Sequence record: NC_050154.1
Length of the DNA: 64,000 nucleotides
Origin: Escherichia phage D6
Reading direction: 5' to 3' (one strand)
The position numbers were made by a program, and so were the translations under genes. Below, piece by piece: positions 40,829 through 64,000 of the stretch. Each line of letters begins with the position of its first letter. Positions within the stretch are counted from its first letter, which is position 1. Under the pieces are notes generated by a model. It was not told where the DNA came from. It worked only from the letters and a program-made list of their open reading frames with translations, and did no database searches.

Positions 40829-40833
40829 CTTTA

Positions 40834-45816: not shown

Positions 45817-45840
45817 CCATTTGAAGGATCACACAGGGTT

Positions 45841-46596: not shown

Positions 46597-46889
46597 GGGC
46601 AATTTTTACACCCTTCTCAAGGTGTAGAATTTGCCCTTAACGATCGGCAATTGAGGGCAATTTTTACATCTTAATTGCATGTATCTTGTTATTAGCAAGT
46701 TGTGTTTTTATATAACGTATTGATATATAAGGGTTATGTAAAAATCACCCTCAACCAATATCGTGCGTATCGTGCATTCTTATTGCGCTTTTTTATTATC
46801 ATTCACTGTGTTAACTGATTGATATTATTGAAATGTGTAAAGAATGCCTTCATTACAGATGAATTGATGATGTAAAAAATGCCCTCAAA
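46593..46889. repeat. Downstream iteron array in mixed orientation (incA-like copy-control locus)
   Basis: ttaagggcaatttttacaccc, ggtgtagaatttgcccttaa, ttgagggcaatttttacatc, tatgtaaaaatcaccctcaa, gatgtaaaaaatgccctcaa. Confidence 0.7.
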
Positions 46890-46977
46890 ATTGCGCTACC
46901 TTCCCTACCCGCTATCGTTGAGGGCGTGGGTGCTGACGGGAAATGAGCAACCCTCCAGCACACATAATTAAAGCGCT

Positions 46978-47685: not shown

Positions 47686-47700
47686 TCTGCGCCTCCAGCG

Positions 47701-48252
47701 TTAAAAAATGGTAGCCCCCGGAATAATGGCCCGGTTTGAGGACATTTTTTCCTCAATCTCCTGCACGCGGGCATATAGCGTGGCTTCATCGGGCAGATCG
47801 GAGTAGTCAAATTTCCCGTCGATGGATGCTCTACGCTGCCGGGCGACATTTCTTACGTTGATAAGCGCCTCCAGATATTCCTCCAGCATTCCAATGATTG
47901 CAGGAGGCACTTGCCATTCATCCAGCTTTCTGTCGCGTAGATTAACCAGATACAGCATTCGAAAAGGCCAGCGTTCTGAACCTGTTAGCTCTAATTCAAT
48001 AAAGCCGGATAATTCATCCGAATAGACCAACAGGCCGTTGTTGTCGGTAACATGAACCAGAGAGAGATAATCTTCTGGCAACGGGATTGCAGTACCACCA
48101 GCTCTTTCAAGTTTTAACGTTTTCACTACCCCTGCCCTGTCCTGATACGTGGTCAGAGCTTTGATCAGGAATGCTTTCAACGTTTCTTCTTCACGCACAA
48201 GCAGCGGATTAAATCGCTCTTTAACGCTTTCTAATAATTCAATTGGTGTCAT
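47701..48252 (-). CDS. Hypothetical structural protein
   Basis: 183-aa ORF. Confidence 0.3.
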   Translation of the reverse strand: MTPIELLESVKERFNPLLVREEETLKAFLIKALTTYQDRAGVVKTLKLERAGGTAIPLPEDYLSLVHVTDNNGLLVYSDELSGFIELELTGSERWPFRMLYLVNLRDRKLDEWQVPPAIIGMLEEYLEALINVRNVARQRRASIDGKFDYSDLPDEATLYARVQEIEEKMSSNRAIIPGATIF

Positions 48253-48306
48253 TGTTGCCTACAACTCAATAACAAGGATGTTCCCGCCACAAGGGCGGGA
48301 TAGGGA

Positions 48307-48798
48307 TTATTCCGCCCAGTTGTAAACAATGCGCAGGGAAGGTTTAACGACCGCCGTTACGTCTTCGGATGAGAAGTCCACGGCGTCGGAATACACTTTG
48401 CAATGAGAATATGTGCGGATCAGACCTTTATGGTTACCGCTATTCGATTCAGCCGCCGCCTGTAAGGTAATTTCCAGATATTCTTTTCCGTATACCATCT
48501 GTTTTACAGCGGCGAGAACTGCGCCTTCGATAGTTTCCGCGCATGTGACCTGAAATTCACCAGAGTTGCGTAATGGTCCGTGCTGGTTGAATTTCATGCC
48601 ACCAGGGGCGTAATCCTCCACATCTTCACGTGTCATTTCTGGTAACTGAGCTGTACGAACTAGTACAGACAGATGTTCGTAACCCTTAATGGTCATCCAA
48701 TATTCAGAACCAATAAGTTTTTCGCCTGCAGCCAGGTTTTTATTAAACCGGGATTTTAGAAAGGCCATATCGGCTTTTGTATTTGCAAAACCGGACAT
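48307..48798 (-). CDS. Hypothetical structural protein (possible tail tube)
   Basis: 163 aa; size and position downstream of the sheath-like gene. Confidence 0.3.
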   Translation of the reverse strand: MSGFANTKADMAFLKSRFNKNLAAGEKLIGSEYWMTIKGYEHLSVLVRTAQLPEMTREDVEDYAPGGMKFNQHGPLRNSGEFQVTCAETIEGAVLAAVKQMVYGKEYLEITLQAAAESNSGNHKGLIRTYSHCKVYSDAVDFSSEDVTAVVKPSLRIVYNWAE

Positions 48799-48806
48799 AA
48801 ATACTC

Positions 48807-49397
48807 CTACACAAAAACAGATGAGATATTGCTACGGTTGATCGATGTGTTACCGCTGCATTGCAGGGTTACCGTGTTATGAGTGAAATAGCCTTCCGGT
48901 GTGCGCGGGGCGTCCAGTTGGTAACTCACGCTTTTGATAACAACGTCGGTAAGGGCTATGTTCCTACCTATGTTTAACGTTACTGTCTCCGGGCGACGAC
49001 CGAATGGCGCTACATTGTTCAGTTCCGGCGATTCCATCTTCAGCAATGCTGTAATGGCTGCGTTCACTTCAAGTTGCGCATTCACTGTCGCCATGAAATC
49101 AATTACCAGATTAAATTCAGGCGGTTGCTGACCTTCCCAAACAAGCATTGAGTTGAAGAGGGTTTTTGTTGTTACGCCGGTTGCGGTCTGAAGCGTATCT
49201 GCAAGAGAGCCAGCCGCAGCGCTAATACCGCCAAGCAAACCTCCTACTGACTGGTTTTCAAATGGTGATTGCCACATTGATGACAGTTCTGCGGTAGATC
49301 CTTCACCGATATAACCGACGACCATATCCTCTGAAGAGAGGATATAAACCTTCATTAACGGACTTATTCCGTCAGGCATTATCGCGCCGCAAATCAA
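48807..49397 (-). CDS. Hypothetical structural protein
   Basis: 196-aa ORF. Confidence 0.3.
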   Translation of the reverse strand: MICGAIMPDGISPLMKVYILSSEDMVVGYIGEGSTAELSSMWQSPFENQSVGGLLGGISAAAGSLADTLQTATGVTTKTLFNSMLVWEGQQPPEFNLVIDFMATVNAQLEVNAAITALLKMESPELNNVAPFGRRPETVTLNIGRNIALTDVVIKSVSYQLDAPRTPEGYFTHNTVTLQCSGNTSINRSNISSVFV

Positions 49398-49446
49398 ACG
49401 CTATTTCTCCCAGGTAGAGGCCACCTTTGCAGGCGGCCTGTGTCAC

Positions 49447-50187
49447 TTACAAACCGCGTTTTTTGCGAATGCGCATTGATTTTTTGCGGTTGATATTCGC
49501 TACGGATGTATGTGCTTTGCGGCGTGCTTTTTTCAGCGCCTGTTTTTGCAATGACGTCATGCGGCGAGGACGCGGGCGTTTACGGATGATGGTAACCTTG
49601 CCATCACGAACCACTTTTTTACGTACCGCTTCCAGCATTGCGCTATCACCACCAGCAACGGTGTAAATGGCAATAGCTGTTTCCATCATGTCGGTGTCGC
49701 TTTCGGAAAGAGCGTCATAAACACGTTCGGCAGCTGAGTCATCTTCATCGTCGATCATTTCGGTTACATCGTCCTGATCAGCGCCAAGCGCAACAGCTGC
49801 ATCAGCAAGAGCTGCGAGAGCATCGTTATAAGCATCGATTTGCTCATCGGTGAAATCGGTGTCTTCATCGATATCAGCCAGGCCAGCCATAGTGATTGCT
49901 AATGCATCAAATGAGTCAGCCTCCGGATCACCATCTTCAACCCAACCAGCAAGCATGGAAGCTGCCAGGCTGCGCATATCACCTTGTGCACGGGATTCAA
50001 CCGCTTCCATCATCGCGGTTTCAATGTCGTCTTTGGGCTTTGGTTGAGTGTCCTTTCCTTTCTGTCCTGCGCTTTCCAGCATGGCGTTATCATTATTGTC
50101 CTGCGTGGATTTATCACCGCTTTCAAAGCAGCCAGAACCGAAAATCGCACGCATAAAAGGATCAGCAGTATAATTTTTCATATTCAA
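49447..50187 (-). CDS. Acidic protein with basic C-terminal tail (scaffold or internal-protein-like)
   Basis: 246 aa; Asp/Glu-rich body, RKRPRPRR and KKARRK C-terminus. Confidence 0.3.
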   Translation of the reverse strand: MNMKNYTADPFMRAIFGSGCFESGDKSTQDNNDNAMLESAGQKGKDTQPKPKDDIETAMMEAVESRAQGDMRSLAASMLAGWVEDGDPEADSFDALAITMAGLADIDEDTDFTDEQIDAYNDALAALADAAVALGADQDDVTEMIDDEDDSAAERVYDALSESDTDMMETAIAIYTVAGGDSAMLEAVRKKVVRDGKVTIIRKRPRPRRMTSLQKQALKKARRKAHTSVANINRKKSMRIRKKRGL

Positions 50188-50224
50188 ACCTCTCTCCCCC
50201 GCATCATTTAGCGGGGGTTATAAA

Positions 50225-51883
50225 TCAGCGCATCAGAATTGGCTTACCGACGATTCGGCGAGCTGTACCGGTCGGACAAACAGACCAGGACACTTCCCAC
50301 AGATCGATGTCCTTTTGGACAACCTGAACAACATATGGATCTTCACCCTGGGACTTGTCACGTGGAGTAACCAGCGCACCGGCTGCAACGTAACGGTCAA
50401 GCAATTCAGTCATTGCTTTCATTAGCGTTTCTTTGGTAATGCCATCCGGTTCGTGCTTAATCGCCTGAGCTACTTCATAGAAATCTCTGGCGATGGCGTT
50501 CATCAAGGAAGACACATGCTGGAATCGCAGATAGTTGTTTTTGCTGTAAGTTGTTAAAGAGTCGTCAATGTAAACGGACCCGTCAGCAGCAACTGAAACT
50601 GGATTAATGCGCGCAAGAACGAACGCTTCACGATCAACTGCACCGATATTTGGAATTCGGGCAATGTTCTGTCGATCAATAATCGCGCGTGATATACCTG
50701 CCGGTGCGTAATGCCAACCACCAACATCCGGTACCAGCGCCACTCCTTTTGCTTTCGCTACGAATGCGTCGCAGCTAATGCCATAGACGACATTCATTCC
50801 AGTGAAAGTATCTCGGCAGGAGAGCGGGAAGTAGTAACGGCTTGGTTGATGTGAGCCGCCAAAACTATGGCTTTTCGCTTCTGAAATAGCGTTTTCAGGT
50901 GTCTGGTTGCCCTTCAGGTCATAGAACATGTCTACGCGAACATCTTCAGCCAGCTTTTTGATTGCGGCTAAGGCGGATGCGTCATAACAACCCAGTGACA
51001 GCAATGCGGTGTAATTAACCTCTGAAGCTTCGAGAACCTTTAATGCTTCCAGATAGTCTTCAGTGTCAATTTCGGACAGATCTCCATCAGTACCACCTTC
51101 AAAAGCTACATCCTCAAAAATGAGTTGAGCAGCGGATGCTTCTGCATTATCTGCCAGTACGGCACCAATGCGAGTGGACTGGCTTTCAAGCAGTGTCGGA
51201 ATCCATGCTGGTTGGCCCATGTCGTTAGTGCCTTCTGGATTGAAAGACACTTGGTGGCTTTCCAGCACCTCAATGGACCCATCGGTTTGTTTTTCTTTCA
51301 GCGTCAGCGTAAAGAGTTCGCTTTCTTCATCATCGCGAGTTAGTGATAACGTGCGATTTTGAGATGCATCACCATCTTTGATGAAGAATAATGCCTTCTC
51401 TTCACCTTTAATCTGGGGCGTCTCTTTGGGTGTGAAGGACACTGATTGAGTCGTTGCAGTTGAAGCAACACCAACGCTTAATGTGTCACCTGGATTTACT
51501 GTGGTTTCAGTAGGTTCAACGGAAAGTTCTTTGCTCGCCTTTGCCGCTTTTGCTTTGCCCACAACGGAAACAGAAATACCCGGCACCTTCATGTCTTTAG
51601 CGCAAACTCGAACGACATATCCAGATCCGCCTTTTACTGCACGCTCCACGTGGCGATATGGTTCAAATGCCGCGCCCTGGCGAGGGTGAATCGGTGAACC
51701 TAATACGCTTTGATAAGTCGTATCGTCAACTTTCAGTACCTTACCCGGTGCGCCACGACGCGATATTACAAGCCCAGCAAAGACGGATGCGCCACCGCTG
51801 GTATTGGTGAGGGTAGCGTCAGCATTTACTGACATTACAGCAACGCCAGCTGCCTGCCCTACCGAAAAACTAATCTTATTCAT
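50225..51883 (-). CDS. Tail sheath-like protein
   Basis: 552 aa (~59 kDa); size and position as P1 gp22. Confidence 0.4.
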   Translation of the reverse strand: MNKISFSVGQAAGVAVMSVNADATLTNTSGGASVFAGLVISRRGAPGKVLKVDDTTYQSVLGSPIHPRQGAAFEPYRHVERAVKGGSGYVVRVCAKDMKVPGISVSVVGKAKAAKASKELSVEPTETTVNPGDTLSVGVASTATTQSVSFTPKETPQIKGEEKALFFIKDGDASQNRTLSLTRDDEESELFTLTLKEKQTDGSIEVLESHQVSFNPEGTNDMGQPAWIPTLLESQSTRIGAVLADNAEASAAQLIFEDVAFEGGTDGDLSEIDTEDYLEALKVLEASEVNYTALLSLGCYDASALAAIKKLAEDVRVDMFYDLKGNQTPENAISEAKSHSFGGSHQPSRYYFPLSCRDTFTGMNVVYGISCDAFVAKAKGVALVPDVGGWHYAPAGISRAIIDRQNIARIPNIGAVDREAFVLARINPVSVAADGSVYIDDSLTTYSKNNYLRFQHVSSLMNAIARDFYEVAQAIKHEPDGITKETLMKAMTELLDRYVAAGALVTPRDKSQGEDPYVVQVVQKDIDLWEVSWSVCPTGTARRIVGKPILMR

Positions 51884-51950
51884 GCTGGTTCTTATCCTCT
51901 AAAGCGAGAGAACGAGGCAAGGCTACCCACGGTTAATGGGCAGCCTCTGA

Positions 51951-52229
51951 TCAGGATTCGCTTACCGTGAAGTTGTCGCCTACGGTTACTTCTTTCGTAG
52001 TTGGTTCAACACTGACGGCGCTTACGCTTTTAGGTGCCTCCCTAACAGTGACTGTGCACTGTGCGGTTTTATTGCCGTCATTTGTTTTGATTGTCAGCAC
52101 TGCCTGCCCGGCCTTAAGAGCGGTACATGTAGTGCCATCAACCTGGACAATTTCAGGGTGATCTGACTCAACAGTGAAAGATTTGTCTGTTGCGTCAGAT
52201 GGCGTGATAGTTACTTGAATGTTTGCCAT
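51951..52229 (-). CDS. Ig-like (Big_2-type) domain protein
   Basis: 92 aa; TITPSDATDKSFTVESDHPEIVQVDGTT ... TVTV pattern typical of bacterial Ig-like folds. Confidence 0.35.
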   Translation of the reverse strand: MANIQVTITPSDATDKSFTVESDHPEIVQVDGTTCTALKAGQAVLTIKTNDGNKTAQCTVTVREAPKSVSAVSVEPTTKEVTVGDNFTVSES

Positions 52230-52376
52230 TCTTTTCTCCTGAACGCCCCTTATTCAGGGGCGTGTTTTTGCCTTACTTCTGCTTTGTTTTTTTCTGTGCC
52301 TTTGAAGTGTTCGCGGCGATAGTTTCACCTTCATCTACGTCAAGTGACGTTGGTGATACCGACACGTTCGCCACCA

Positions 52377-54074
52377 TCACTTTTTTTCGTTAACCTTGCC
52401 TGTCAGCATGTCGATAGCACCTTCTTTGGCACGAGTCAGACGCAGGCGGGTGAAGTAGTTTTCACCGTTGCGAGGATGTACTTCGTTGATGGCACTGCCC
52501 CAGAGAGTGGTACGGTTAACGAGAGACGGATTGGTTTCGTGCACGTAAGGGATTGCTGGGACTGCATCACCAGCAATCAGACCGGCTTTACCGATGCCTT
52601 CGCCACGCCCATAGAAGAAGATGTCATCCAGCCCGAAGTCATATCCCTGTGCCTGGAATTGCTCACAGACAGGTTGCGGCACTTCGTAAATACGAATCGT
52701 GCCAAACAGGGTGCCGATGTACTGTACATACGGCGACTGAACGTAACCTGGTGCGATCTGGAAGTGCTGTGGAGGCAGAGAGCGCAGGAAGTTCGCGGCG
52801 TCACCACCAGCAAAGCCGCCACGAATACCCGTTGTCAGGGTACGATTTGCCATTTCTTGAGACAGAGCGTTTACTACGTGACGCAGGAGGCCGACCCAGG
52901 ACTCATAGTTTTGAGCTTCCGGCAGAGCCACATCAAATTCACGACCATAAACGGTATGGAATACCAGGGTGCGCAGACGCATGATGTCGGTTTCATGGGA
53001 GATCCAGTTACGCATCGCGGAGAACTGAAGTGCCGCTAATTCAAGGCCGTGCTCACGGCTTAAATCGGATGCGGACATTACCGTGTGTTCGGAAGCAATT
53101 ACGTACTGGGACGGACGAACTTCGTACTTACGCATAGCCTGGTTGATCACCGGAATCAGGCTTGGATTGCGCTCGATGTTAATTTCGACCTGAACAGCAA
53201 TTTCAGTACCTTCTGGCGGAGCCTGGGTAAATGTAATGTCAATGACACCAGTGTCATAGGCAACTTTGGCAGTCGCTGAGAAAGCATTACCTTTGCTGTC
53301 TTTAGCATTGAAATAAAGGTTGCCATCGCCGTCGTCAACTTTGGACGGTTTGCGGTTGATCAGCAGTTTGTTATAACCAGCGCGAAGCGGGCAGGATTGT
53401 CCCTCAAAATTTTGGATGTCGAACTGGAAGGTTTTGGTGCTGCCATCCCCTTTAGTGGAAAGGGTATACAGGCGCTTCATTTGAGAATAAACACCAGCTG
53501 ACTGCATATTCAGTTCGTCACCTTGTTTGAAGGTGCCGAATTTTGTGCCTGCTACGTTGACCAGTTCATAAATATTTGACTCGTCACGATCACAAGGAAC
53601 AAAAGTACAGGCATCACTGGTAGCAGCGCCCAGAGAGGCAGGCAGAATTAGAGCAGCATATTGAGCAACTTTCATTACGCCGTCAGAGCTACGCATTGAT
53701 TGCGCGACAGACTCAAACATTGCCTTACCCGTGCCTTCATGGGTATCACTGGCACATTCAGTCATCAAGCGTTCAAGAGCCATGTGTGCGTTCGCCAGGA
53801 TGTCACTTGCCGGGTAATGACCATGTTGACGTTTATACTCATGCAGAGACATAGCCCACCCACCAGTGATCTGACGAGCGACCTCTGGATTTACGCCTTC
53901 AAACATAGGCACTTTCTGGATTGCTTTATCCAGGTTTTCCATCATTACTGCCTGGTCAGCAATCATGTTTCCTGCTGCATCGGTGGTCGGATCGACGGTC
54001 ATAGCCATGACGCTTGCCGCCCGATTCATAATCTCGCGCTCGCGATCACGAGCTGGCTGAATGTTTTTATTCAC
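52377..54074 (-). CDS. Major capsid-like protein
   Basis: 565 aa (~62 kDa), as for P1 gp23 precursor; first gene of the head/sheath operon. Confidence 0.4.
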   Translation of the reverse strand: MNKNIQPARDREREIMNRAASVMAMTVDPTTDAAGNMIADQAVMMENLDKAIQKVPMFEGVNPEVARQITGGWAMSLHEYKRQHGHYPASDILANAHMALERLMTECASDTHEGTGKAMFESVAQSMRSSDGVMKVAQYAALILPASLGAATSDACTFVPCDRDESNIYELVNVAGTKFGTFKQGDELNMQSAGVYSQMKRLYTLSTKGDGSTKTFQFDIQNFEGQSCPLRAGYNKLLINRKPSKVDDGDGNLYFNAKDSKGNAFSATAKVAYDTGVIDITFTQAPPEGTEIAVQVEINIERNPSLIPVINQAMRKYEVRPSQYVIASEHTVMSASDLSREHGLELAALQFSAMRNWISHETDIMRLRTLVFHTVYGREFDVALPEAQNYESWVGLLRHVVNALSQEMANRTLTTGIRGGFAGGDAANFLRSLPPQHFQIAPGYVQSPYVQYIGTLFGTIRIYEVPQPVCEQFQAQGYDFGLDDIFFYGRGEGIGKAGLIAGDAVPAIPYVHETNPSLVNRTTLWGSAINEVHPRNGENYFTRLRLTRAKEGAIDMLTGKVNEKK

Positions 54075-54207
54075 GGTTAAGCCCTAAATTCGGGCGCGGC
54101 GTGAAGGTTCTTTTGACGGGCTAACAATACCTACTTTGTGATTTAGTCAATAGGTTTAGTAAAATAAAATCTATTAACACTCATGTTGTTATGTGATTTA
54201 ATTTTGG

Positions 54208-54225
54208 TTTTCTAACACAAATCAT
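54208..54225 (+). promoter_or_regulatory. Operator-like motif (ttttctaacacaaatcat) 8 bp upstream of the 54233 start
   Basis: 18-bp identity with the site at 21267; preceded by gtgattta. Confidence 0.5.
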
Positions 54226-54232
54226 TAGAGTT

Positions 54233-54625
54233 ATGGCGTATCGAATCTTTGTTTCGTATAAAAATGGCGCTAAGAGCCACTCTCTGAACACAACAAGTCG
54301 CTTTCTTGTTGAGGCGCAGTTGGCATCAATTCTTGCCGAAAGTGAGATACTCTCGCTCGCTGAACGGATCGTTATCCAGTTTTCTGGTAGAGATATACTC
54401 AATGCCCCCGCCCTCACTCCGGCCTCCGAAGTTATGGAATCAATTAAATGGCCTGTATGCGGATGTCCTGCCAGGGTTGAAGAGCCGGTAACAGCAACGC
54501 TCTACATGCCGAAAGCAGTAAGAGATTGGCTTGCTATGGTTGGTAATGGGAAAGTCAGTGCTGGACTTCGCAAGTTAATTGAAATGGCAGATATTCCTGA
54601 GTTAAAAAATGCATGGCGACAATGA
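54233..54625 (+). CDS. Hypothetical protein, possible DNA-binding C-terminus
   Basis: 130 aa; ATG start; CGCP motif; C-terminal KAVRDWLAMVGNGKVSAGLRKLIEMA. Confidence 0.35.
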   Translation: MAYRIFVSYKNGAKSHSLNTTSRFLVEAQLASILAESEILSLAERIVIQFSGRDILNAPALTPASEVMESIKWPVCGCPARVEEPVTATLYMPKAVRDWLAMVGNGKVSAGLRKLIEMADIPELKNAWRQ

Positions 54626-54641
54626 GTAAACAAGGGACAAA

Positions 54642-55100
54642 ATGAGTCACGTTAACCCATCAAAAACACAATATCGCTTAATGCTGGCGATCGCGTCAGC
54701 TATACCAACCAGCCTGAATCCCCCGGCAGGCTATCCCGCTGTTGTTGATGATTGTTTTCAGTATTACGGAGAAGACATCCTGAGCCAGTCAAAAGCGCTC
54801 AAGCAGTTATGTAAGGCAGGTATTCTTCACTGTATCGGAGATCCGGACGATTTTGTTGTTATGCTGGCGGATCGTGACTCTTTTCTACTGTCCTGGAAAG
54901 CTGGTGCGCGCGAAGCACGTTTGGGGAATGGTATTGGTTACATAGACTATAGCGATTGTCCGCTGGCATTTGCTGGTGGATATATGCATTGGCATGAGCG
55001 AAATAGGGGCCGTCAGCGTCAGTATCGTTTGAGTGACTTTAACGTCTGTCACGGTTTCGAAGAAGCTGACAGCCAGGACATCTGGCTTCAGGAGCCTTGA
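54642..55100 (+). CDS. Hypothetical protein
   Basis: 152-aa ORF 17 bp downstream of the previous gene. Confidence 0.35.
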   Translation: MSHVNPSKTQYRLMLAIASAIPTSLNPPAGYPAVVDDCFQYYGEDILSQSKALKQLCKAGILHCIGDPDDFVVMLADRDSFLLSWKAGAREARLGNGIGYIDYSDCPLAFAGGYMHWHERNRGRQRQYRLSDFNVCHGFEEADSQDIWLQEP

Positions 55101-55420
55101 TCCCCCTTCCCTTCCCAAATCTCCCTGTTTCTTTGGTTATTCAGTGCGTTTCGTTGGTTGCATTCGTCGATCGTGCTGAATAACTGTTCAGCGTATGTCG
55201 GATACTTGTTTAACAGCACTGGCGTGTCTTCTGGCACTAAACAAGGGGAGTAATCAATCAGATTTGCCTGCGGCTTGCTGGTGGCTTCTACGGTAATTTT
55301 CACTGGCACGCTGGTTGATGGCTTTTGCCCGTTCCCGCTGCATCCTGATAACGTCATCAGGCACACGCACATCGTTAATCCCAGCACGGCGTAACGCATT
55401 TTCAAGGCGAGTGATTTCAT
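55088..55420 (-). CDS. Outer-membrane spanin lipoprotein (Rz1-like), overlapping the i-spanin gene out of frame
   Basis: Lipobox LSGC after a hydrophobic signal; Pro-rich mature region with Cys; RBS GAGAGGAAAG before ATG at 55420. Confidence 0.55.
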   Translation of the reverse strand: MKSLALKMRYAVLGLTMCVCLMTLSGCSGNGQKPSTSVPVKITVEATSKPQANLIDYSPCLVPEDTPVLLNKYPTYAEQLFSTIDECNQRNALNNQRNREIWEGKGDQGS

Positions 55421-55727
55421 TCTGGCTTTCCTCTCGTTGTTTGATTAGGTTGGCATTCAGTTCTGCTGTTTTGCGCTGGTACTCCTTTTCCAGTGCTTTA
55501 ATTCTTTCGTTTTCGGTCAGCATGGCTGAGCGAGCGTTCTCACTTAACTGTAATGCGGTAGAAAGCGTGTTGTTCGTGCTTTCCAGTTGTGATTTTGAGT
55601 CTTCAAGCGATCGGACATACCTGATGTGTTCGATAACTGCCGTCGTTGTTCGGTAAATTCCAGAAATGGCTAAAAGCGCAATTACAATCAAAATTATCTT
55701 TTTCAAAACCATCCTCTTCAGGTTCAT
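55254..55727 (-). CDS. Inner-membrane spanin (Rz-like)
   Basis: 157 aa; N-terminal TM helix followed by coiled-coil periplasmic domain; contains the Rz1-like frame. Confidence 0.55.
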   Translation of the reverse strand: MNLKRMVLKKIILIVIALLAISGIYRTTTAVIEHIRYVRSLEDSKSQLESTNNTLSTALQLSENARSAMLTENERIKALEKEYQRKTAELNANLIKQREESQNEITRLENALRRAGINDVRVPDDVIRMQRERAKAINQRASENYRRSHQQAAGKSD

Positions 55728-55782
55728 TTTCGGTGTTAAACATGTACCAAATTACATCCTTTTGTGTGCCTAAGTGGTGTTG

Positions 55783-56589
55783 CTATGGTTCCTTTTTGGT
55801 GTTCTTTTGGAGCGCATCGATAACGCCTTGTGGCATGATTAAACTGATTGCCGGACTCATTACTGCATCATCCAGTAGAGAACCAGTTAACGTGATGGCG
55901 ACAGCGTTCTCTAAACCTTTGGTTGCCTGAGTGGTTGACGTTTTAATGCGACCTGTAAGGGCTACGACACTCTCACTTGCTGAGTTAATTTCGGAGAGTA
56001 AAGCTTCGGCGGCTGTCACTGCTTCCCGTAAAGCATCAATTTCATCCTGAGTAATGACTGGAGCCTGAGCGCCCCCAGCACCACCCTGTCCACCATTGCT
56101 ATCACCACCACCAGCACTTCCGGCAGCTTCAATTTTTGCGTTAATGGCGTTCATGGCGGTTTTCAGAGCATCAAGTTTTAGCGCCGTCAATGCGTCCGTT
56201 AGAGATTGCGGAATGGAAACATTCCCCATTCCCTCAACAAGGGCGAAAGCAGGTATGGGGGTCAGCTCGTTACCTTTTGCGTAGCATTCCCAGCCAATCT
56301 TCATCTGTAACAGCTCTGATGGCTTGGTGTATGGGGAAAGAGAATCAGCCAGTAATGAAGACGCTTTGCTGGCCTCATTGAGCTGTTCAGAAAAGCCAAG
56401 CAATTGAGTAGTCCAGGCCGAAACAGAATCAGGATAGGTTTTATCGGCGTGAACTATTCCCTGTATGGCGCTGGCGAGCGATGAGGCTTTTACAGAAGCT
56501 GCTCGGCTTATGGTTATAGATTCTGGTGTAGAGATACCGGCATCTGACAGAATTTTGAAGGCTTTAACTTCACCTATTGAATCAAGCAT
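55783..56589 (-). CDS. Hypothetical Ala/Gly-rich protein
   Basis: 268 aa from ATG at 56589 (overlaps PAAR stop, TAATG); the track's longer ORF uses an upstream alternative start. Confidence 0.35.
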   Translation of the reverse strand: MLDSIGEVKAFKILSDAGISTPESITISRAASVKASSLASAIQGIVHADKTYPDSVSAWTTQLLGFSEQLNEASKASSLLADSLSPYTKPSELLQMKIGWECYAKGNELTPIPAFALVEGMGNVSIPQSLTDALTALKLDALKTAMNAINAKIEAAGSAGGGDSNGGQGGAGGAQAPVITQDEIDALREAVTAAEALLSEINSASESVVALTGRIKTSTTQATKGLENAVAITLTGSLLDDAVMSPAISLIMPQGVIDALQKNTKKEP

Positions 56590-56873
56590 TATGCAACCTG
56601 AAAAATATCCTCGCCGTTGGCGATAACAGAACCACAAGAAAGCAGATCGCCTACACAGACAACTCCCTTTCCACCTATCGAAAACCATGCTCGCGTCGAT
56701 ACAGCTGCCCCTGGATGTGCACTGTTACCGTCAGTGTGACTGGGAAACATGGCACCATCTACAACAACTGGCTTACCGTTAACGGTGAACCAGGGAACGG
56801 TTTCAGCTACCAGTCGCGGCGGAAATCCTCCGTGACCAGAACAAAGGGTGTCGCTGGTGGCTATTGCGCTCAT
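56589..56873 (-). CDS. PAAR-domain spike-tip protein
   Basis: 94 aa; CSGHGGFPP and VCVGDLLSCGS pattern typical of PAAR; strong RBS AGGAGG. Confidence 0.7.
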   Translation of the reverse strand: MSAIATSDTLCSGHGGFPPRLVAETVPWFTVNGKPVVVDGAMFPSHTDGNSAHPGAAVSTRAWFSIGGKGVVCVGDLLSCGSVIANGEDIFQVA

Positions 56874-56957
56874 TCTTCACCTCCTGGTTATCCTTCTATT
56901 GTCATCACTTTGTTATTTCGTCATTCAAACGGAGAGTTAAATTTCGGAATATTTTTG

Positions 56958-57116
56958 TATTCTCAATTCGCTCTCAAATTTATCTCACTATCAGACCATC
57001 ATTCGGTGGGTGATTAAGATATTCTCAAAATAAACTCAACAAGCGCCCTTTTTTATCTCGTTTGGTGTGGATTTTTGGGGGCTTCTCTTTTAAAATTACA
57101 TTTTGATTCTCAAATG
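56958..57116 (+). repeat. parC-like centromere region with repeated TTCTCAA(A) motifs
   Basis: tattctcaattcg, gctctcaaattt, atattctcaaaat, tgattctcaaatg upstream of parM. Confidence 0.4.
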
Positions 57117-57139
57117 TGTCTCAGAAGTGGAGCAAGAAG

Positions 57140-58096
57140 ATGCGCATTTTTATCGATGATGGTTCAACCAATATCAAAATGCTGTGGGAGCACGACGGGG
57201 AAACTCGCACTCACATCAGCCCTAACAGCTTTAAGCGCGGATGGTCAGCAACATTTGGTGCGGGCAAGCCGTTTAACTATGTCATTGACGACGAAAAGTA
57301 TTCATACGACTTGATATCGCCAGATGTTCTGCCGACGAATAATGTGGAATGGCAATACAGCCCGCTTAACGTCCTGGCTGTTCACCATGCCCTGCTGACA
57401 AGCGGTATTGAGCCGCAGGAAGTAGAAATTGTGGTCACGCTGCCTCTGGCAGAGTTTTACGACGACGACGCGCAATACAATCTCGATAACATCGAGCGCA
57501 AGAAAGCCAGTCTTATGCGCCCCGTCACGCTGAATAAAGGCAATGTATTCACTATTAAGAAAGTTACGGTACGCCCGGAGTCTATCCCGGCGGGAATTAG
57601 CCTGTGCGACAATCTGAACCCTGCCCACTCTGTTCTTATCGTCGATTTGGGTGGAACTACCCTTGATGTTTCAATGGTCGCTGGACAAATGACGGCAGTT
57701 TCCCGTGTTTTTGGCGATTCGAATCTTGGTGTATCACTGGTCACCAGGGAAGTAAGGCAAGCACTTGCAAGGGCCAATACCGAAACGTCAAATTACAATG
57801 TTGATCAGCTCATTATTAACCGCCACGATGAAGATTATCTGAACGACAATATCAATGACCCATCAGCGATTGGTGATGTGAAAAAGGCCATTGCCGCAAG
57901 CATTGACCGTCTGCGTACCCGCGTTCTTGATGTGATTGGCGACTTTAAAGGATATACGCATGTCATGGTGATCGGTGGTGGCGCACCGCTGGTGGCAGAT
58001 GCAATTCGCGAGCAAGTTAATATTCGTGATGACCGTTTCTTCGTGGCGGATGACCCGCAACTTGCTCTTGTTCATGGCCTGAAAGCAATCGGTTAA
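57140..58096 (+). CDS. parM: Actin-like plasmid segregation ATPase ParM (StbA)
   Basis: MRIFIDDGSTNIK ... ISPNSFKRGW ... VAVHHALLTSG closely parallels plasmid R1 ParM; ATG at 57140 with GGAG RBS. Confidence 0.85.
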   Translation: MRIFIDDGSTNIKMLWEHDGETRTHISPNSFKRGWSATFGAGKPFNYVIDDEKYSYDLISPDVLPTNNVEWQYSPLNVLAVHHALLTSGIEPQEVEIVVTLPLAEFYDDDAQYNLDNIERKKASLMRPVTLNKGNVFTIKKVTVRPESIPAGISLCDNLNPAHSVLIVDLGGTTLDVSMVAGQMTAVSRVFGDSNLGVSLVTREVRQALARANTETSNYNVDQLIINRHDEDYLNDNINDPSAIGDVKKAIAASIDRLRTRVLDVIGDFKGYTHVMVIGGGAPLVADAIREQVNIRDDRFFVADDPQLALVHGLKAIG

Positions 58097-58102
58097 CGAG
58101 GT

Positions 58103-58447
58103 ATGTCCATGTCTCAGGAACGTAAGAAAGTGATGATTTATCTTCGCCCAGAGGCTTATGCCAATGAAAAGGCGGCGAGCGAGAAGATAAAAAAACATAG
58201 CGATATGGCAAGAACTGCATTGTTGGCAGGGCTTGCGCTGGGAGAAGTCGATAGCAGGCTTCCAGGATTACTGGCTTCCCTGCTGACCGAAGACAATAAC
58301 CCGGAGCTGATCCGAAAAATGCTGGCATCCTTCTTGGAACTACCAGCTGCGGTTGAGGAGCGCCCTGCCTCCATTGAGCCAGTGAAGGAGCAATTTGTTG
58401 CCAAAAGCGCGTCGGCGCGCAATCTGGCTGACTCTCTACCTGATTGA
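58103..58447 (+). CDS. parR: ParR (StbB) centromere-binding adaptor
   Basis: 114 aa; RTALLAGLAL matches R1 ParR RAALTAGLAL; directly downstream of parM. Confidence 0.7.
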   Translation: MSMSQERKKVMIYLRPEAYANEKAASEKIKKHSDMARTALLAGLALGEVDSRLPGLLASLLTEDNNPELIRKMLASFLELPAAVEERPASIEPVKEQFVAKSASARNLADSLPD

Positions 58448-58465
58448 CAGAAGATGTGCTGGTTT

Positions 58466-58490
58466 AAGGCTGCAAATTGCAGCCTTTTTT
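58466..58490 (+). terminator. Rho-independent terminator after parR
   Basis: aaggctgca-aat-tgcagcctt followed by TTTT. Confidence 0.65.
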
Positions 58491-58500
58491 ATGCCTTAAT

Positions 58501-58570
58501 GGTGTCTAATTAGTGTTAATCTGGCACCAGTTAGGTGCTGTTATGGTGCAATTTTGTATCTGGTTCCAAT
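58501..58570. repeat. GGTGC/GGTTC-type repeats at ~11-bp phasing upstream of parA (putative centromere/operator)
   Basis: ggtgtc, ggcacc, ggtgct, ggtgca, ggttcc spaced about one helical turn apart. Confidence 0.4.
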
Positions 58571-58734
58571 TTGGGGCTGCTTTCGTGTTAAATAGGATGC
58601 AATATAAGGTGTATTTGGTCTGATTGATGTTATACTTTGCCAAACATTCATGACTCCATTATAGAGCCTGTCCCGCATCAAAAAGGCTCTTATCTGGAAC
58701 CGTTTTGATACCAAAATCACACCGAGGAACGGAT

Positions 58735-59376
58735 ATGATTATATTGGTAGTCAGCCAAAAAGGTGGCTGTGGAAAATCAACCACAAGCGTAAACATCTGT
58801 GCGGAGCTTGCCCGCGAAAATAAGGATGTAGTGTTACTAGATGCAGACAAGCAAGGAACAGCTGCCCGCTGGGCAGCTGACCGTAACACGGCAGAGGTTT
58901 CTCCTGTAATTCATTGTGTCCAGAAGTTTGGTAATATTCGAGAAACACTTCTCGATCTGGATAAGCGTTATGAATTTGTAGTTGTTGATACAGCCGGGCG
59001 CGATAGCAAAGAGATGCGTACAGGCATAACCGCTGCAGATATTGTGTTGGTCCCATTCAGACCATCTCAACCAGATTTAGACACGCTGGCACACTTTGTT
59101 GAAGTGTTTGAAGAGGCTTTGGACCTGATGCCTAATCCTAGCATCAAGGCGTTCGCAGTCTTAACAATGGCCCCATCCAATCCGGTTGTGAATGAAACCA
59201 ATGAGGCCAAAGAGTACCTGGCTGAATATCCGCAACTGAAGTTGCTGAAAACCATCATTCGTGATCGTAAGGTTTACCGCGATTGCATGGCTGAAGGGAA
59301 GGGCGTTGTTGAGATGGACAACGGGAAAGCTAAAGGTGAAATCCAGATGTTGGTTAAGGAGTTATTAAGTGATTAA
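58735..59376 (+). CDS. Small ParA-family partition ATPase (type Ib)
   Basis: Walker A KGGCGKST; 213 aa from ATG at 58735 with GAGGAA RBS. Confidence 0.75.
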   Translation: MIILVVSQKGGCGKSTTSVNICAELARENKDVVLLDADKQGTAARWAADRNTAEVSPVIHCVQKFGNIRETLLDLDKRYEFVVVDTAGRDSKEMRTGITAADIVLVPFRPSQPDLDTLAHFVEVFEEALDLMPNPSIKAFAVLTMAPSNPVVNETNEAKEYLAEYPQLKLLKTIIRDRKVYRDCMAEGKGVVEMDNGKAKGEIQMLVKELLSD

Positions 59377-59656
59377 GCCTCGTAAATCGGTAAAAGCCCC
59401 CGAAGTAAAAGACCCTGATCTTGAACGCCGAATTGAGGATTTTGCCAGTAAGGCTGATTTGGTGCCGGGTGAGCAACCAGAAGACAACAAAGTGCTCGAT
59501 AAGGACGCTCCACGTGATTTTAAATCTATTCGTGTTGGTTTCAATGAATACGAGTACCAAGTACTTGATGCGTTAAGTAAAAAGCATAATCGCAGCAAAT
59601 TGAATATGATCCGCCATGCTATCCTCATGTTAGCGGAGTCTGAGGAAGCAAAATAA
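59369..59656 (+). CDS. ParG-like centromere-binding protein (ribbon-helix-helix C-terminus)
   Basis: 95 aa; GTG start with AAGGAG RBS overlapping the parA stop; C-terminal IRVGFNEYEYQVLDALSKKHNRSKLNMIRHAI is RHH-like. Confidence 0.5.
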   Translation: MIKPRKSVKAPEVKDPDLERRIEDFASKADLVPGEQPEDNKVLDKDAPRDFKSIRVGFNEYEYQVLDALSKKHNRSKLNMIRHAILMLAESEEAK

Positions 59657-59690
59657 AGTCTTTCAGGTTGGTTTTAGAACTTAAAAAGTC

Positions 59691-59760
59691 TTGAACCAAA
59701 GGTGCACCAATACACCACTAATTTGGTGCACCTTTACATCCTTTTTGGTTCCAATTGTGT
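59691..59760. repeat. Second block of GGTGCACC / TTGGTTCC repeats downstream of parG
   Basis: Palindromic GGTGCACC twice (25-bp spacing) plus ttggttccaa; includes a terminator-like hairpin. Confidence 0.4.
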
Positions 59761-59924
59761 ACCATTTGTCATTAATTTACTTATGCGCAAAAGTGGGCTT
59801 CATGAAAAAGCTCATTATTGAAATAACGATAGAAAGCAATTTCTAATCAACTAGTGGTTGTCAGCCTATTCGGCTTATAAGATCATACGCTGTTATACGT
59901 TGTTTACGCTTTGAGGAATCCACA

Positions 59925-61586
59925 ATGAGTGAGGCAGAAGCCCGCCCGACTAACTTTATTCGTCAGATCATCGATGAAGATCTGGCCAGTGGTAAGCACA
60001 CCACAGTACATACCCGTTTCCCGCCGGAACCGAATGGCTATCTGCATATTGGTCATGCGAAATCTATCTGCCTGAACTTCGGGATCGCCCAGGACTATAA
60101 AGGCCAGTGCAACCTGCGTTTCGACGACACTAACCCGGTAAAAGAAGATATCGAGTACGTCGAGTCGATTAAAAACGACGTTGAATGGTTAGGTTTTCAC
60201 TGGTCTGGCAACATCCGTTACTCCTCCGATTATTTTGACAAACTCCATGCCTATGCTGTTGAACTGATCAACAAAGGCCTGGCGTATGTTGACGAACTGA
60301 CGCCGGAACAGATCCGCGAATACCGCGGCACCCTGACGCAGCCGGGTAAAAATAGCCCGTACCGCGATCGCAGCGTTGAAGAGAACCTGGCGCTGTTCGA
60401 AAAAATGCGTGCCGGTGGTTTTGAAGAAGGTAAAGCCTGCCTGCGTGCGAAAATCGATATGGCTTCGCCGTTTATCGTGATGCGCGACCCGGTGCTGTAC
60501 CGCATTAAGTTTGCTGAACACCACCAGACTGGCAACAAGTGGTGCATCTACCCGATGTACGACTTCACCCACTGCATCAGCGATGCGCTGGAAGGTATTA
60601 CGCACTCTCTGTGTACGCTTGAGTTCCAGGACAACCGTCGTCTGTATGACTGGGTACTGGACAACATCACCATTCCTGTTCACCCGCGCCAGTACGAATT
60701 CTCGCGCCTGAATCTGGAATACACTGTGATGTCCAAGCGTAAGCTGAACCTGCTGGTGACCGACAAGCACGTTGAAGGCTGGGATGACCCGCGTATGCCG
60801 ACCATTTCCGGTCTGCGTCGTCGTGGTTACACTGCTGCTTCTATTCGTGAGTTCTGCAAACGCATCGGCGTGACCAAGCAGGACAACACCATTGAGATGG
60901 CGTCGTTGGAATCCTGCATCCGTGAAGATCTCAACGAAAATGCGCCGCGCGCAATGGCGGTTATCGATCCGGTGAAACTGGTTATCGAAAACTATCAGGG
61001 CGAAGGCGAAATGGTCACCATGCCGAACCATCCGAACAAACCGGAAATGGGGAGCCGTCAGGTGCCGTTTAGCGGTGAGATTTGGATTGATCGCGCCGAT
61101 TTCCGCGAAGAAGCTAACAAGCAGTACAAACGTCTGGTGCTGGGTAAAGAAGTGCGTCTGCGTAATGCTTATGTGATTAAGGCAGAACGCGTCGAGAAAG
61201 ATGCCGAAGGTAATATCACCACCATCTTCTGTACTTATGACGCCGATACCTTAAGCAAAGATCCGGCAGATGGTCGTAAAGTCAAAGGTGTTATTCACTG
61301 GGTGAGCGCGGCACATGCGCAGCCGGTTGAAATCCGTTTGTATGACCGTCTGTTCAGCGTGCCGAACCCAGGTGCTGCGGATGATTTCCTGTCGGTGATT
61401 AACCCGGAATCGCTGGTGATCAAACAGGGCTTTGCTGAACCGTCGCTGAAAGATGCGGTTGCGGGTAAAGCATTCCAGTTTGAGCGTGAAGGTTACTTCT
61501 GCCTCGACAGCCGCCATTCTACGGCGGAAAAACCGGTATTTAACCGCACCGTTGGGCTGCGTGATACCTGGGCGAAGTTAGGTTAA
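59925..61586 (+). CDS. glnS: Glutaminyl-tRNA synthetase
   Basis: 553 aa; HIGH motif (HIGH at residues ~40-43), VMSKR motif; near-identical along its length to E. coli GlnS as I recall it. Confidence 0.95.
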
Positions 61587-61611
61587 TAGGTATTTCGCCA
61601 CATAAAAAAGT

Positions 61612-61636
61612 AAACGCCGCTACTGCGGCGTTTTTT
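61612..61636. terminator. Bidirectional rho-independent terminator between glnS and dam
   Basis: aacgccgc-tact-gcggcg followed by TTTTTT; A-run upstream. Confidence 0.7.
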
Positions 61637-62540
61637 ACTTCATTATTGCAATTATATCGTTAGCAACTACACGTGTTGACGCCTTGCAGGACACCGACCG
61701 TCTGGCTGCCATATGATGTACTTTAAACCCGTTTCCTTCATATAGTTCACGGATGTTTGGCGCACCACTATTTGTTATCACTACCTTAGCGCCGCGCTGG
61801 TGGGCTTCCACCAATAGAGATACCAGCCGTTTCTGTTCGTCGAAACGGAAGCTATTTCCTGAATAACTGGTAAACCCTTCTGTATCCGGCAGCGGTTCAT
61901 ACGGCGGATCGCAAAAAATCACATCGCCTTCACCAGCCGCCTCGATGACGCCAGCAAAGTCACCTGATACAAAGGACGTGTTTTTGAGTACGTCATCAGC
62001 CAAAAATGCCTCCATCTCTGCATGTGGGAAGTAGGGCGCTTTGTATTTGCCATACCCCACGTTGAACTCGCCATTTTGGTTGTACCGCGTTACGCCATTA
62101 AAACAGTGCCGATTAAGGTACAAAAAGGCGGCAGCATGATGTAGCTGGTCATACTTTCCTCTGTTAAATGCCTCACGCACTTCGAGGTAAGCGTCAGCGT
62201 TGTTGTAATTTTGGAAAAAACTATATGACAGCGTGACGAGCGAATGTCCTTCTCGCTGCAATGTCTGATAGAAGTTAATCAGGTCACCGTTAATATCATT
62301 AAGCAGGTTGTGGCGAAATCCTGCATTCGTAAATACGGAACCGCCACCAACGAATGGTTCTATTAACCGCTTACCGTGTGGTAGATGCTCAAGCACTGTA
62401 GGCAATTCTGAGAATTTACCACCTACCCATTTGAATATCGGACGCTCATATTCATCCGGAGTCCGAATGGTGCGCATATAGCTAATTTCAGCCATCGTAT
62501 CCTGTTTTTCTATGGCTATGCTTGCTATAGATTTACTCAT
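61635..62540 (-). CDS. dam: Dam-family N6-adenine DNA methyltransferase
   Basis: KWVGGK, FLYLNR, EFNV and DPPY motifs aligned to E. coli Dam; ATG at 62540 overlaps the upstream gene stop (ATGAGTAA). Confidence 0.8.
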   Translation of the reverse strand: MSKSIASIAIEKQDTMAEISYMRTIRTPDEYERPIFKWVGGKFSELPTVLEHLPHGKRLIEPFVGGGSVFTNAGFRHNLLNDINGDLINFYQTLQREGHSLVTLSYSFFQNYNNADAYLEVREAFNRGKYDQLHHAAAFLYLNRHCFNGVTRYNQNGEFNVGYGKYKAPYFPHAEMEAFLADDVLKNTSFVSGDFAGVIEAAGEGDVIFCDPPYEPLPDTEGFTSYSGNSFRFDEQKRLVSLLVEAHQRGAKVVITNSGAPNIRELYEGNGFKVHHMAARRSVSCKASTRVVANDIIAIMK

Positions 62541-63213
62541 AGAGCACCCCCTTATTCGCTTCGAAAACTGCCTTTGCGAATCCATGTGGAGTAGCACTTC
62601 GAAAATTAGCCCTGTCAGGCCCTGGTGGCGCGGCATGGATTCTGTTATCTGGCTTGCCTAATGATTCGTCCATTAGGGCATCAGGCATGACAAAGCCCTG
62701 GCCGCTCCAGAGGCATGTTTTTTTGGTGTAGTTATCTTCCTGACAATATGCAGTGAAGAAGTAAGGGTGAAAGATGTGATCTGGCTTACGCCAGAATGTC
62801 GATATTTTGCTGACCGGATTTTCAATCATGTACGGACAACCGATCATCTTTGCAATGTCATAACACTGCCAGACAACCTGCATTGCTTTGAACTGGAAAA
62901 CCGGATCTTTATTAGCCTTGTCCGAAAACCAGCGCGCGCCGGAAACAGCCAGGTCAGTACACGGTGGGAACCCGGCCAGAAACACGATGCGCTGCAAATT
63001 CTTACGGAGAAAAGCGTATACTTCATCGCTATCGATGATCGCACTAATACGCGTCAGAACGGCACCTGATTGCATCCGCTCGTCACTGGTCGATAAGTGC
63101 TGTGGATCGACGATAGCGGCATCGACACCGTATTCCAGCCAGGGGGCAACCATTGCCCCCGTAAAATCACAAAGACTCACAACAAGCGGTCGGTTATTAT
63201 CGTTCTGCTTCAC
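62533..63213 (-). CDS. Compact C5-cytosine-methyltransferase-like protein (start uncertain)
   Basis: [12 protein letters not shown] (PC motif IV-like) and YMIENP (ENV motif VI-like); candidate GTG start at 63213 with GGAGG RBS; too short for a full C5-MTase with target-recognition domain. Confidence 0.4.
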
Positions 63214-64000
63214 CGCCAATGGCCTCCACCAGCGCGTTAAACAGTGCAGATAATTCGCCCGTAAAGAGCACGAAATCAGCATCAAATCGTTGTGCTACAT
63301 CCTCCCGGTCGATATCGTCGTTCTGGTCATAGAGATCATCACAGAATGTCAGGGCTTTGATACTCATATCATCGTTGACTCTGAACGACGCGCGGTCCAT
63401 CCAGTTAATTGCAACGGTCGTAGCTACTTTCCCCGCCTCAATGTGAGACATAATCTCGTCGGACTGTAGATCAACTTTGTTGCAGCGAACGGCACCACCA
63501 TTATCGAGCAGACCCTTTAATGTGGCGTCTTCACCTGCTGTAAATCCGGCAGGGAAGCCGTTTTTAAACCACTCGGTCATTGTAATTTCCAGCGGTTCGC
63601 GTGGTGTGAATGGAATGACAGGCAGGCTGCCGAGCGATTTTCGCAATAAAGCCAGCTGGTCCTCTGCCTTTTTGGCGCTGCTTGCCTCAACGAATACCAG
63701 ATGGTTTCTGCGGTCGATCAGGATTTTGGCGAGTGATTTTCTCGTGAAAGCACGAGGAAGAAGAGAGTGAAGCACTTCATCCTTCAGCGAATCTTTTTCG
63801 GTCTTCTTCAGCTTTCTGTCTTGCTCTTCTTCAAGTGTCAGGATTTTTTTCTGTAACTCTTCTTTGAGCACTTGAGAAGGTAGGATTTTTTCCTCTCGTT
63901 TATGCTGTATCAGAAGAAAACCCTGGTATTCATGGGTGAGGTTGTCACCAAGAACGGAGGTCCAACCAGCTTTAGCCATATCCTGAGAACCGCATGGGGT
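63197..64000 (-). CDS. rdgC: RdgC-like recombination-associated protein (5' end beyond window)
   Basis: EEKILPS ... [21 protein letters not shown] ... [20 protein letters not shown] matches E. coli RdgC over its C-terminal ~260 aa; P1 carries a homologue (hrdC) next to dmt. Confidence 0.85.

Follow-up and report, generated by a model that had tools for sequence, protein, structure and literature searches.

An Escherichia-type glnS gene carried as cargo by D6-like plasmid prophages

We find that a D6-like plasmid prophage carries, between its partition operon and its dam gene, a second copy of the Escherichia chromosomal glnS gene with its native promoter. We think it probable that this Escherichia-derived cargo gene gives extra dosage of glutaminyl-tRNA synthetase (GlnRS), with a modest and conditional benefit. 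The gene appears to have entered the element once, long ago, and to have exchanged segments with resident chromosomes ever since.

The gene content of the element marks it as a D6-like plasmid prophage, a relative of P1, in which glnS is a cargo gene ("moron"). The region in question of the window (the whole 64,000-nt stretch of DNA that was analysed) is 100% identical to plasmid unnamed6 of E. coli ETEC1706 (NZ_CP122910.1, 90.9 kb, circular). That plasmid has annotated virion and packaging genes (pacase, portal, sheath, tail fibres) as well as Ref, Icd, phd/doc, higBA, a Cre-like recombinase, RepB, parM, parA and four tRNA genes; two toxin-antitoxin systems are thereby present on a low-copy plasmid. 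In addition, positions 59300..62000 are 99.9% identical to pYU39_89 (NZ_CP011430.1) from Salmonella Typhimurium YU39, which Silva et al. (2019, PLoS One, PMC6799933) classed among the D6-like plasmid prophages. We assign the element to this family because of the P1-type gene set on a circle of ~90 kb and the identity to pYU39_89. A search with 24 kb of the window against a phage collection from which the D6 genome is absent returned no near match. The element also bears an anti-defence gene annotated as Tad2.

The captured segment and its surroundings

Comparison with the host chromosome, which the preliminary description had proposed as the way to define the junctions, fixed them clearly. By blastn, a stretch of 1746 nt of the window is 96.8% identical to K-12 (Table 1) and nothing beyond it is homologous; the limits obtained with the O157, Nissle and WP4 chromosomes were similar. 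In the alignment, the 5' junction lies 88 nt before the glnS ATG and the 3' junction two codons before the stop. The 5' start of homology falls approximately where the chromosomes of different E. coli phylogroups become alignable upstream of glnS. Base composition differs across the region as well: glnS has 52.2% GC, compared to 43-47% for parA, orf95 and dam, and 35% for the element-native intergenic DNA. Judged from these alignments, the captured cassette is minimal, consisting of the native promoter and the glnS open reading frame minus its last two codons, and the reading frame closes in element DNA.

Table 1. Features of the glnS region and of the element in window coordinates
Feature	Position	Strand	Basis or remark
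tRNA genes Met/Ile-CAT, Ser-TGA, Thr, Asn	6084..7850		about 52 kb from glnS
Partition operon (ParA-family ATPase, 58735..59376; 95-aa partner ORF, 59369..59656)	58735..59656	+	NF041546
Element-native intergenic part, 35% GC	59657..59836	.	holds 13-bp palindrome
Escherichia chromosomal glnS-homologous segment	59837..61582	+	blastn vs K-12; multiple alignment
Native glnS sigma-70 promoter, TTGTCA-17-GATCAT (predicted)	59858..59886	+	promoter scan; conserved in copies aligned
glnS CDS	59925..61586	+	553 aa; HIGH at residue 41, VMSKR 268-272
K-12/O157-chromosome-type patch, ~500 nt, read as gene conversion	60995..61496	+	triplet analysis
Bidirectional intrinsic terminator common to glnS (+) and dam (-) (predicted)	61612..61633	.	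both-strand scan
dam, Dam-family N6-adenine methyltransferase	61635..62636	-	convergent with glnS; TIGR00571

The product of the gene is a GlnRS of the host type. It is identical to K-12 GlnS at 548 of 553 residues, and it scored 1067.9 bits against the glnS equivalog profile TIGR00440 (cutoff 425.8), with profile positions 1-524 of 524 aligned to residues 28-551, a full-length match. The class I aminoacyl-tRNA synthetase (aaRS) motifs are present (HIGH, residue 41; TVMSKRK, 267-273), and the changes relative to K-12 are V97I, Q106K, I112V, L466Q and V552L, together with the absence of the final Glu. The C-termini differ among copies: chromosomal GlnS ends in AKVGE, the window protein in AKLG, and the protein of the D6-like plasmid of E. 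fergusonii in AKVEG. By its sequence the product is an ordinary GlnRS that shares 99% of its residues with the host enzyme and has intact catalytic motifs, and this identity to a characterised enzyme suggests that it would charge tRNA-Gln. These results bear out the earlier claim of a full-length, E. coli-like GlnS, and an identity to E. coli of 99% at the amino acid level and 97% at the nucleotide level rules out a divergent, phage-native enzyme.

The regulatory sequences around the gene have two different origins. The preliminary description credited glnS with its own promoter, ~200 bp of upstream non-coding sequence and a strong terminator. The promoter was correctly recognised: the native promoter lies within the captured 88 nt, and its sequence, including the -35 and the GATC-bearing -10, is kept in all aligned chromosomal and plasmid glnS copies. 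A Dam site (GATC, 59881..59884) is situated inside the -10 hexamer. The upstream non-coding stretch does exist, as an intergenic region of 268 nt (59657..59924), but its homology to the chromosome is confined to the proximal 88 nt. The remainder contains a perfect 13-bp palindrome (AAAGGTGCACCAA/TTGGTGCACCTTT, 59698..59735), which in the E. fergusonii element reads AAAGAGGCGTCAA/TTGATGCCTCTTT and is maintained despite changes on both arms; it is probably a par site or operator, or else the terminator of the par operon. A hairpin terminator is likewise present downstream, but it is not glnS's own.

This hairpin has nine pairs, six of them G-C, with T-runs on both strands, and is placed directly after the dam stop codon. 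The 66-nt terminator segment folds at -19.8 kcal/mol on the plus strand and -21.3 kcal/mol on the minus strand (z ~ -3.6 to -3.9). Since chromosomal homology stops before the glnS stop codon, and since D6-like plasmids without glnS have a hairpin there (a different one, in the same position relative to dam), we consider the terminator to be element-native, and co-capture of a host terminator is ruled out. Transcription of glnS would end at this bidirectional terminator of dam.

The neighbouring genes on either side belong to the element. Upstream of glnS are parM/stbB and then parA and orf95, the ParA-family ATPase matching NF041546 (ParA_partition) at E = 7e-48. Downstream, the longest dam open reading frame matched TIGR00571 with 248.9 bits over residues 65-330; the true start likely lies near 62540, which would give a stand-alone Dam of 301 aa. 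In pE2863-2, dam is part of a fused Dcm-like::Dam gene. We rejected a dam frameshift beside glnS, as Dam is stand-alone in the window and fused elsewhere. Partition genes on one side and dam on the other are thus the flanks first described, and the segment is not adjacent chromosome.

We also considered capture by an insertion sequence or transposon. No transposase was found in the par-dam interval, and the sole flanking repeat is a direct repeat with 12 of 13 positions matching, at 59812 and 61640, that is marginally above chance (shuffle p = 0.03). With neither a flanking insertion sequence nor a clear target duplication, we set this route aside.

Distribution, empty sites and the chromosomal copy

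The par-glnS-dam arrangement is widespread. Searches turned up identical junctions in 98 plasmids of PLSDB, whose hosts are E. coli, Salmonella and Shigella; among complete E. coli genomes, 70 have them. The preliminary description had called for chimerism to be excluded and for related phage-plasmids to be checked; these identical junctions, in some hundred independent plasmids, answer both points, and rule out misassembly as well as adjacent chromosomal sequence. Of 5426 complete E. coli genomes, 101 had a D6-like par module, in every case on a plasmid; with none on a chromosome among the 5426 genomes searched, we discounted chromosomal integration via glnS homology.

Not all members of the family carry the gene. 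Using a synthetic query from which glnS had been deleted, we found D6-like plasmids with an empty site, with ~130 nt of intergenic DNA and then a hairpin terminator between the par operon and dam. Three of these were verified directly (Shigella dysenteriae NZ_CP026816.1; E. coli NZ_AP027678.1 and NZ_CP122510.1). About 20 of 122 D6-like PLSDB records lack glnS. This agrees with the complete E. coli genomes, where 101 plasmid-borne sites matched a query with flanks and 81 matched glnS alone. Judged by neighbouring genes, the Shigella empty-site plasmid is nearest to the glnS-plus plasmid of E. fergusonii, while the empty-site plasmids PSS-08-1 and W444 are nearest to the window. Since glnS-plus and glnS-minus forms are present in both backbone lineages, we regard the segment as an exchangeable accessory cassette found in ~80% of the D6-like family. 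The gene is dispensable for D6-like plasmids, as ~20% of them do without it. Among the roughly 60 glnS copies listed, three (H115, H148 and H149) differ in length by 1 or 5 nt and lack a CDS annotation; they may be pseudogenes or reflect errors of assembly.

The chromosome of the carrier strain ETEC1706 retains an intact glnS, with the sequence of the K-12 allele and the native promoter. The plasmid gene is a second copy there, as had been proposed from the start, and not a replacement. Across the 5426 genomes searched, there were 5428 matches to chromosomal glnS.

Age of the insertion and exchange with the chromosome

The D6-like glnS alleles are 95-97% identical in nucleotide sequence to those of E. 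coli chromosomes, ~95% to that of E. ruysiae and 85% to that of Salmonella. Plasmid copies borne by Salmonella are also of the Escherichia type, some of them 99.9% identical to the window; at 85% to the Salmonella chromosome versus 97% to E. coli, a Salmonella origin of these copies is ruled out. We set aside pSa1423-90k (89.8% identity) as a Salmonella-type intermediate, since its 82 gap openings indicate an error-rich assembly.

Synonymous divergence between the window and the D6-like plasmid of E. fergusonii is much lower in glnS (dS 0.23) than in its neighbours (parM, 0.56; parA, 1.19; orf206, 1.50; orf95, saturated). The E. fergusonii plasmid has the same 5' glnS junction as the window. 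Because the junctions are common to backbones whose neighbouring genes are synonymously saturated, we consider the insertion to be old.

A triplet analysis of the window with pE16EC0256-4 and K-12 (59 informative sites) indicated that the window glnS is a mosaic. Informative sites in 59960..60744 and in 61508..61583 are of the plasmid type, and between them lies a patch of the K-12/O157-chromosome type (Table 1); in a max-chi-square test, none of 5000 permutations attained the observed value. A different tract, resembling the WP4 chromosome, is found in the 5' third of the glnS gene of pEc1079_2. The ends of the gene nearest the junctions retain plasmid-specific variants. The simplest reading of these patterns is one old insertion; gene conversion with the chromosome of the resident Escherichia would then have occurred repeatedly, and cassette exchange between backbones may have contributed further.

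The coding sequence has been kept intact through this exchange. The dN/dS ratio of glnS is 0.02-0.03, whether plasmid alleles are compared with one another or with the chromosome, which argues for purifying selection on a gene kept intact across ~100 plasmids; part of this low ratio could be imported chromosomal polymorphism, already filtered by selection on the chromosome. Across the plasmid alleles, we found no fixed substitutions except in the last two or three C-terminal residues, and the plasmid proteins differ from the housekeeping GlnRS by only 3-6 changes, all conservative, with chromosomal segments swapped in.

Possible roles and relation to known systems

How might an extra glnS act? 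The glnS promoter is reported to be repressed by Dam methylation of its GATC (Plumbridge and Soll 1987, as cited in PMC12369378), and RNA-seq of a dam deletion confirmed this repression, with a log2 fold change of +1.08 for glnS (PMC12369378). In the reading we favor, the plasmid gene would be transcribed from its own promoter subject to repression by Dam methylation, and its presence in a lysogen would roughly double glnS dosage. During lytic replication, many copies, transiently under-methylated, would raise the dosage far higher. Higher GlnRS dosage would provide more capacity for charging tRNA-Gln, and the benefit could be to host fitness, hence to plasmid retention, or to phage yield. Given that ~20% of D6-like plasmids lack the gene, we propose that any such benefit is modest and depends on conditions.

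The preliminary description had suggested that glnS might act together with the tRNA genes of the element, an idea that found no support. No tRNA-Gln is found among those genes. Moreover, Gln makes up 3.9% of the element proteome and is not enriched (it is ~4.4% of the E. coli proteome), while Asn, Thr and Ser, which match the element's tRNA genes, are enriched. We see no signal of a specific demand for Gln, since the proteome is not enriched for it and a tRNA-Gln is lacking, and we dropped a special Gln demand or tRNA link as unsupported. A change in GlnRS specificity is unlikely, as is a resistant variant, because no substitutions are fixed outside the C-terminus.

A more elaborate version of the dosage reading would have glnS act as a booster of tRNA-Gln charging, gated by methylation and copy number upon lytic replication, and also as a shuttle of glnS alleles between E. 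coli lineages and Salmonella via conversion. The booster is suggested by the retention of a Dam-repressed promoter beside the element's own dam, and the shuttle by the fact that glnS is a portable stretch of near-perfect chromosomal homology; we judge this combination to be decidedly improbable.

The main competitor of extra dosage is that the gene confers no benefit and hitch-hikes, remaining intact because it is recent and is repaired by conversion from the selected chromosomal copy. Its dispensability, the demonstrable conversion patches and the small number of conservative amino acid changes all fit this explanation. However, the insertion is old, being shared by backbones with synonymously saturated neighbors, and the gene is intact at a frequency of ~80%. 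This extends to Salmonella, whose own chromosomal gene, at only 85% identity, is a partner with which conversion should seldom take place. The conservation of the -35 hexamer and of the GATC-containing -10 is also not expected of a passive passenger, nor is the uptake of their own host's glnS by at least two other plasmid types independently. We regard neutrality as unlikely.

Silva et al. (2019, PMC6799933) suggested a take-over, by analogy with cysS of plasmid pBT1, in which the chromosomal glnS is silenced or lost, so that loss of the plasmid becomes lethal or costly. The pBT1 precedent (PMC6785131) gives this idea substance, and an essential gene on a low-copy plasmid with two toxin-antitoxin systems would suit a theme of maintenance. 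If take-over were the rule, the chromosomal gene should be compromised in carriers, but that of ETEC1706 is K-12-identical with its native promoter, the 5428 chromosomal matches over 5426 genomes give no sign of loss, and about a fifth of the D6-like plasmids lack the gene. Because the ETEC1706 copy is intact, addiction by strict replacement of the host gene is unsupported at the gene level, and we give take-over very little credence.

We also considered that the extra copy protects against an attack on GlnRS or tRNA-Gln, as a surplus target or as a resistant variant. The presence of the Tad2-annotated gene is compatible with such a role, and plasmid-borne aaRS paralogues conferring inhibitor resistance are a known class (mupA/ileS2). 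The D6-like copies do not resemble that class, as they have no clear divergence, with 3-6 conservative differences. A resistant variant is also hard to reconcile with 99% identity to the host enzyme, fixation of only the extreme C-terminus and the swapping of chromosomal segments. The attackers that might be envisaged are a kinase or other toxin, a contact-dependent tRNase, an abortive-infection effector or a natural GlnRS inhibitor; we know of no attacker of GlnRS. Protection in general strikes us as extremely improbable, though dosage of a surplus target may play a part. Thus, extra GlnRS dosage is the explanation that we retain.

The preliminary description implied that a glnS gene on such an element was new, whereas its occurrence in D6-like prophages was already known, having been reported in 2018 and 2019. 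Gilcrease and Casjens (2018, Virology 515:203), as cited in Silva et al. (2019), noted glnS in D6 and D6-like genomes, and Silva et al. (2019, PMC6799933) published both its status as a moron and a hypothesis of fitness or maintenance. Their pYU39_89 has the same gene in the same element family, in a region 99.9% identical, and is not essentially different from the element analysed here. They reported glnS in all D6-like genomes, whereas we found D6-like relatives without it. We found no later literature on the function of D6-like glnS, and a 2026 preprint on an O111:H8 plasmid does not mention the gene. The present analysis adds the precise limits of the captured segment, a bidirectional terminator native to the element, an empty site with ~20% of relatives lacking glnS, the mosaic left by conversion, a carrier strain whose chromosomal copy is intact, and independent captures by conjugative plasmids.

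Plasmid and phage copies of essential translation genes are recognised, yet unexplained. Canals et al. (2019; PMC6333337, PMC6785131) surveyed aaRS genes on plasmids in general. The one case examined in detail is the cysS gene of plasmid pBT1 from Salmonella Typhimurium ST313 D23580, in which the plasmid copy became the essential one (PMC6785131). Like D6-like glnS, it is a housekeeping aaRS gene carried as cargo in addition to a chromosomal copy (PMC6333337, PMC6785131). In contrast, pBT1 is a plasmid and not a phage-plasmid, and D6-like GlnRS is 99% identical to that of the host with no sign of silencing of the host copy. D6-like elements are common, being carried by 101 of 5426 complete E. 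coli genomes and found also in Salmonella and Shigella, and they occur naturally with and without glnS, which makes them a convenient system in which to study the role of a duplicated aaRS. The conversion signal further suggests that the cargo gene is a live recombination partner of the chromosome.

Complete glnS genes are also found on two other plasmids. Citrobacter cronae p.S175-1.4 carries cysS and a glnS that is 89.9% identical in nucleotide sequence to a Citrobacter chromosome, and plasmid unnamed2 of Enterobacter ludwigii CM-TZ4 carries a glnS 92.4% identical to an Enterobacter chromosome. Both are IncI-type conjugative plasmids, which rules out the Enterobacter case as a second capture by a phage-plasmid, and their insertion contexts are unlike that of the D6-like elements; we therefore consider them to be independent captures. 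Other GlnRS proteins in the phage collection, for example from phage genomes of ~640 kb and from an Acinetobacter phage, are at most 57% identical in amino acid sequence. Those of megaphages and uncultured phages look phage-adapted or old, whereas the D6-like copy is near-identical to the host's and looks like a recently homogenised host allele.

glnS on other plasmids

Complete glnS genes are also carried by plasmids outside the D6-like group. An IncI-type conjugative plasmid of Citrobacter cronae (p.S175-1.4) bears a complete cysS together with a Citrobacter-like glnS (89.9% nucleotide identity to that of C. murliniae), with a single small ORF between the two and a higBA-like pair adjoining; the case resembles that of the plasmid-borne cysS of Salmonella pBT1. 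A further independent capture is seen in the 133.6-kb plasmid unnamed2 of Enterobacter ludwigii CM-TZ4, which has genes for a type IVb pilus and TraJ/DotD; its glnS is bordered on one side by a pair of site-specific integrases and on the other by dinQ and a SNF2-related gene of 7.2 kb.

Features of the D6 window and of related or comparable plasmids
Feature	Location	Strand	Remarks
cysS + glnS	C. cronae p.S175-1.4, 2918..6742
Enterobacter-like glnS	E. ludwigii CM-TZ4 unnamed2, 118545..120212		92.4% identity
tRNA cluster	window 6084..7850	-	CAT, Ser(TGA), Thr(TGT), Asn(GTT)
Perfect 13-bp palindrome	window 59698..59735 (inside 59657..59836)		AAAGGTGCACCAA/TTGGTGCACCTTT; directly 3' of parA-orf95 operon
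12/13 direct repeat	window 59812..59824 and 61640..61652		TCATTATTG[A/C]AAT; adjoins both glnS insert ends
Methylase module	window 61635..63285	-	unfused Dam of about 301 aa, likely start near 62540
Gene annotated as Tad2-family	NZ_CP122910.1, 4828..5403
IS91 insertion	NZ_CP122910.1, 43236..44788

Sequences bordering the glnS insert

The palindrome on the parA side of the insert is preserved in the E. fergusonii element as AAAGAGGCGTCAA/TTGATGCCTCTTT, despite changes in both arms, while at the corresponding region of the glnS-less relatives it is replaced by iterated GGTACC..ATTGG-like motifs. It is probably either a partition site or operator, or the terminator of the par operon.

The direct repeat, whose right copy falls within the 3' end of dam, is kept in the E. 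coli D6-like copies but is weaker in E. fergusonii. A repeat of this kind flanking the insert had a shuffle P of 0.03; it may be a relic of the insertion event or have arisen by chance.

Methylase and tRNA genes

The methylase module varies among D6-like plasmids. In pE2863-2, one 2289-nt gene fuses a Dcm-like N-terminal module to Dam, as in P1 Dmt, whereas Dam in the window is unfused and is preceded by an unrelated ORF of 206-250 aa. RefSeq labels the window's version an incomplete pseudogene, a call that looks like an annotation artefact.

Within the tRNA cluster, the CAT tRNA is assigned to Met by ARAGORN and to Ile by RefSeq, and the 87-nt Ser(TGA) tRNA is labelled tRNA-OTHER by RefSeq. 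Compared with the usual E. coli figures, the element's proteome is enriched in Asn, Ser and Thr; this is compatible with codon-demand matching for the element's tRNAs, but not for glnS.

Relatives of the element

The 24 kb of P1/D6-type element at window 40000..64000 had no megablast match among 50,697 phage-collection records; therefore, phage D6 and its close relatives appear to be absent from that collection. In NZ_CP122910.1, the record of the E. coli ETEC1706 plasmid, the element also has a gene whose annotation is Thoeris anti-defence Tad2-family protein, and there is an IS91 insertion close to its replication region.
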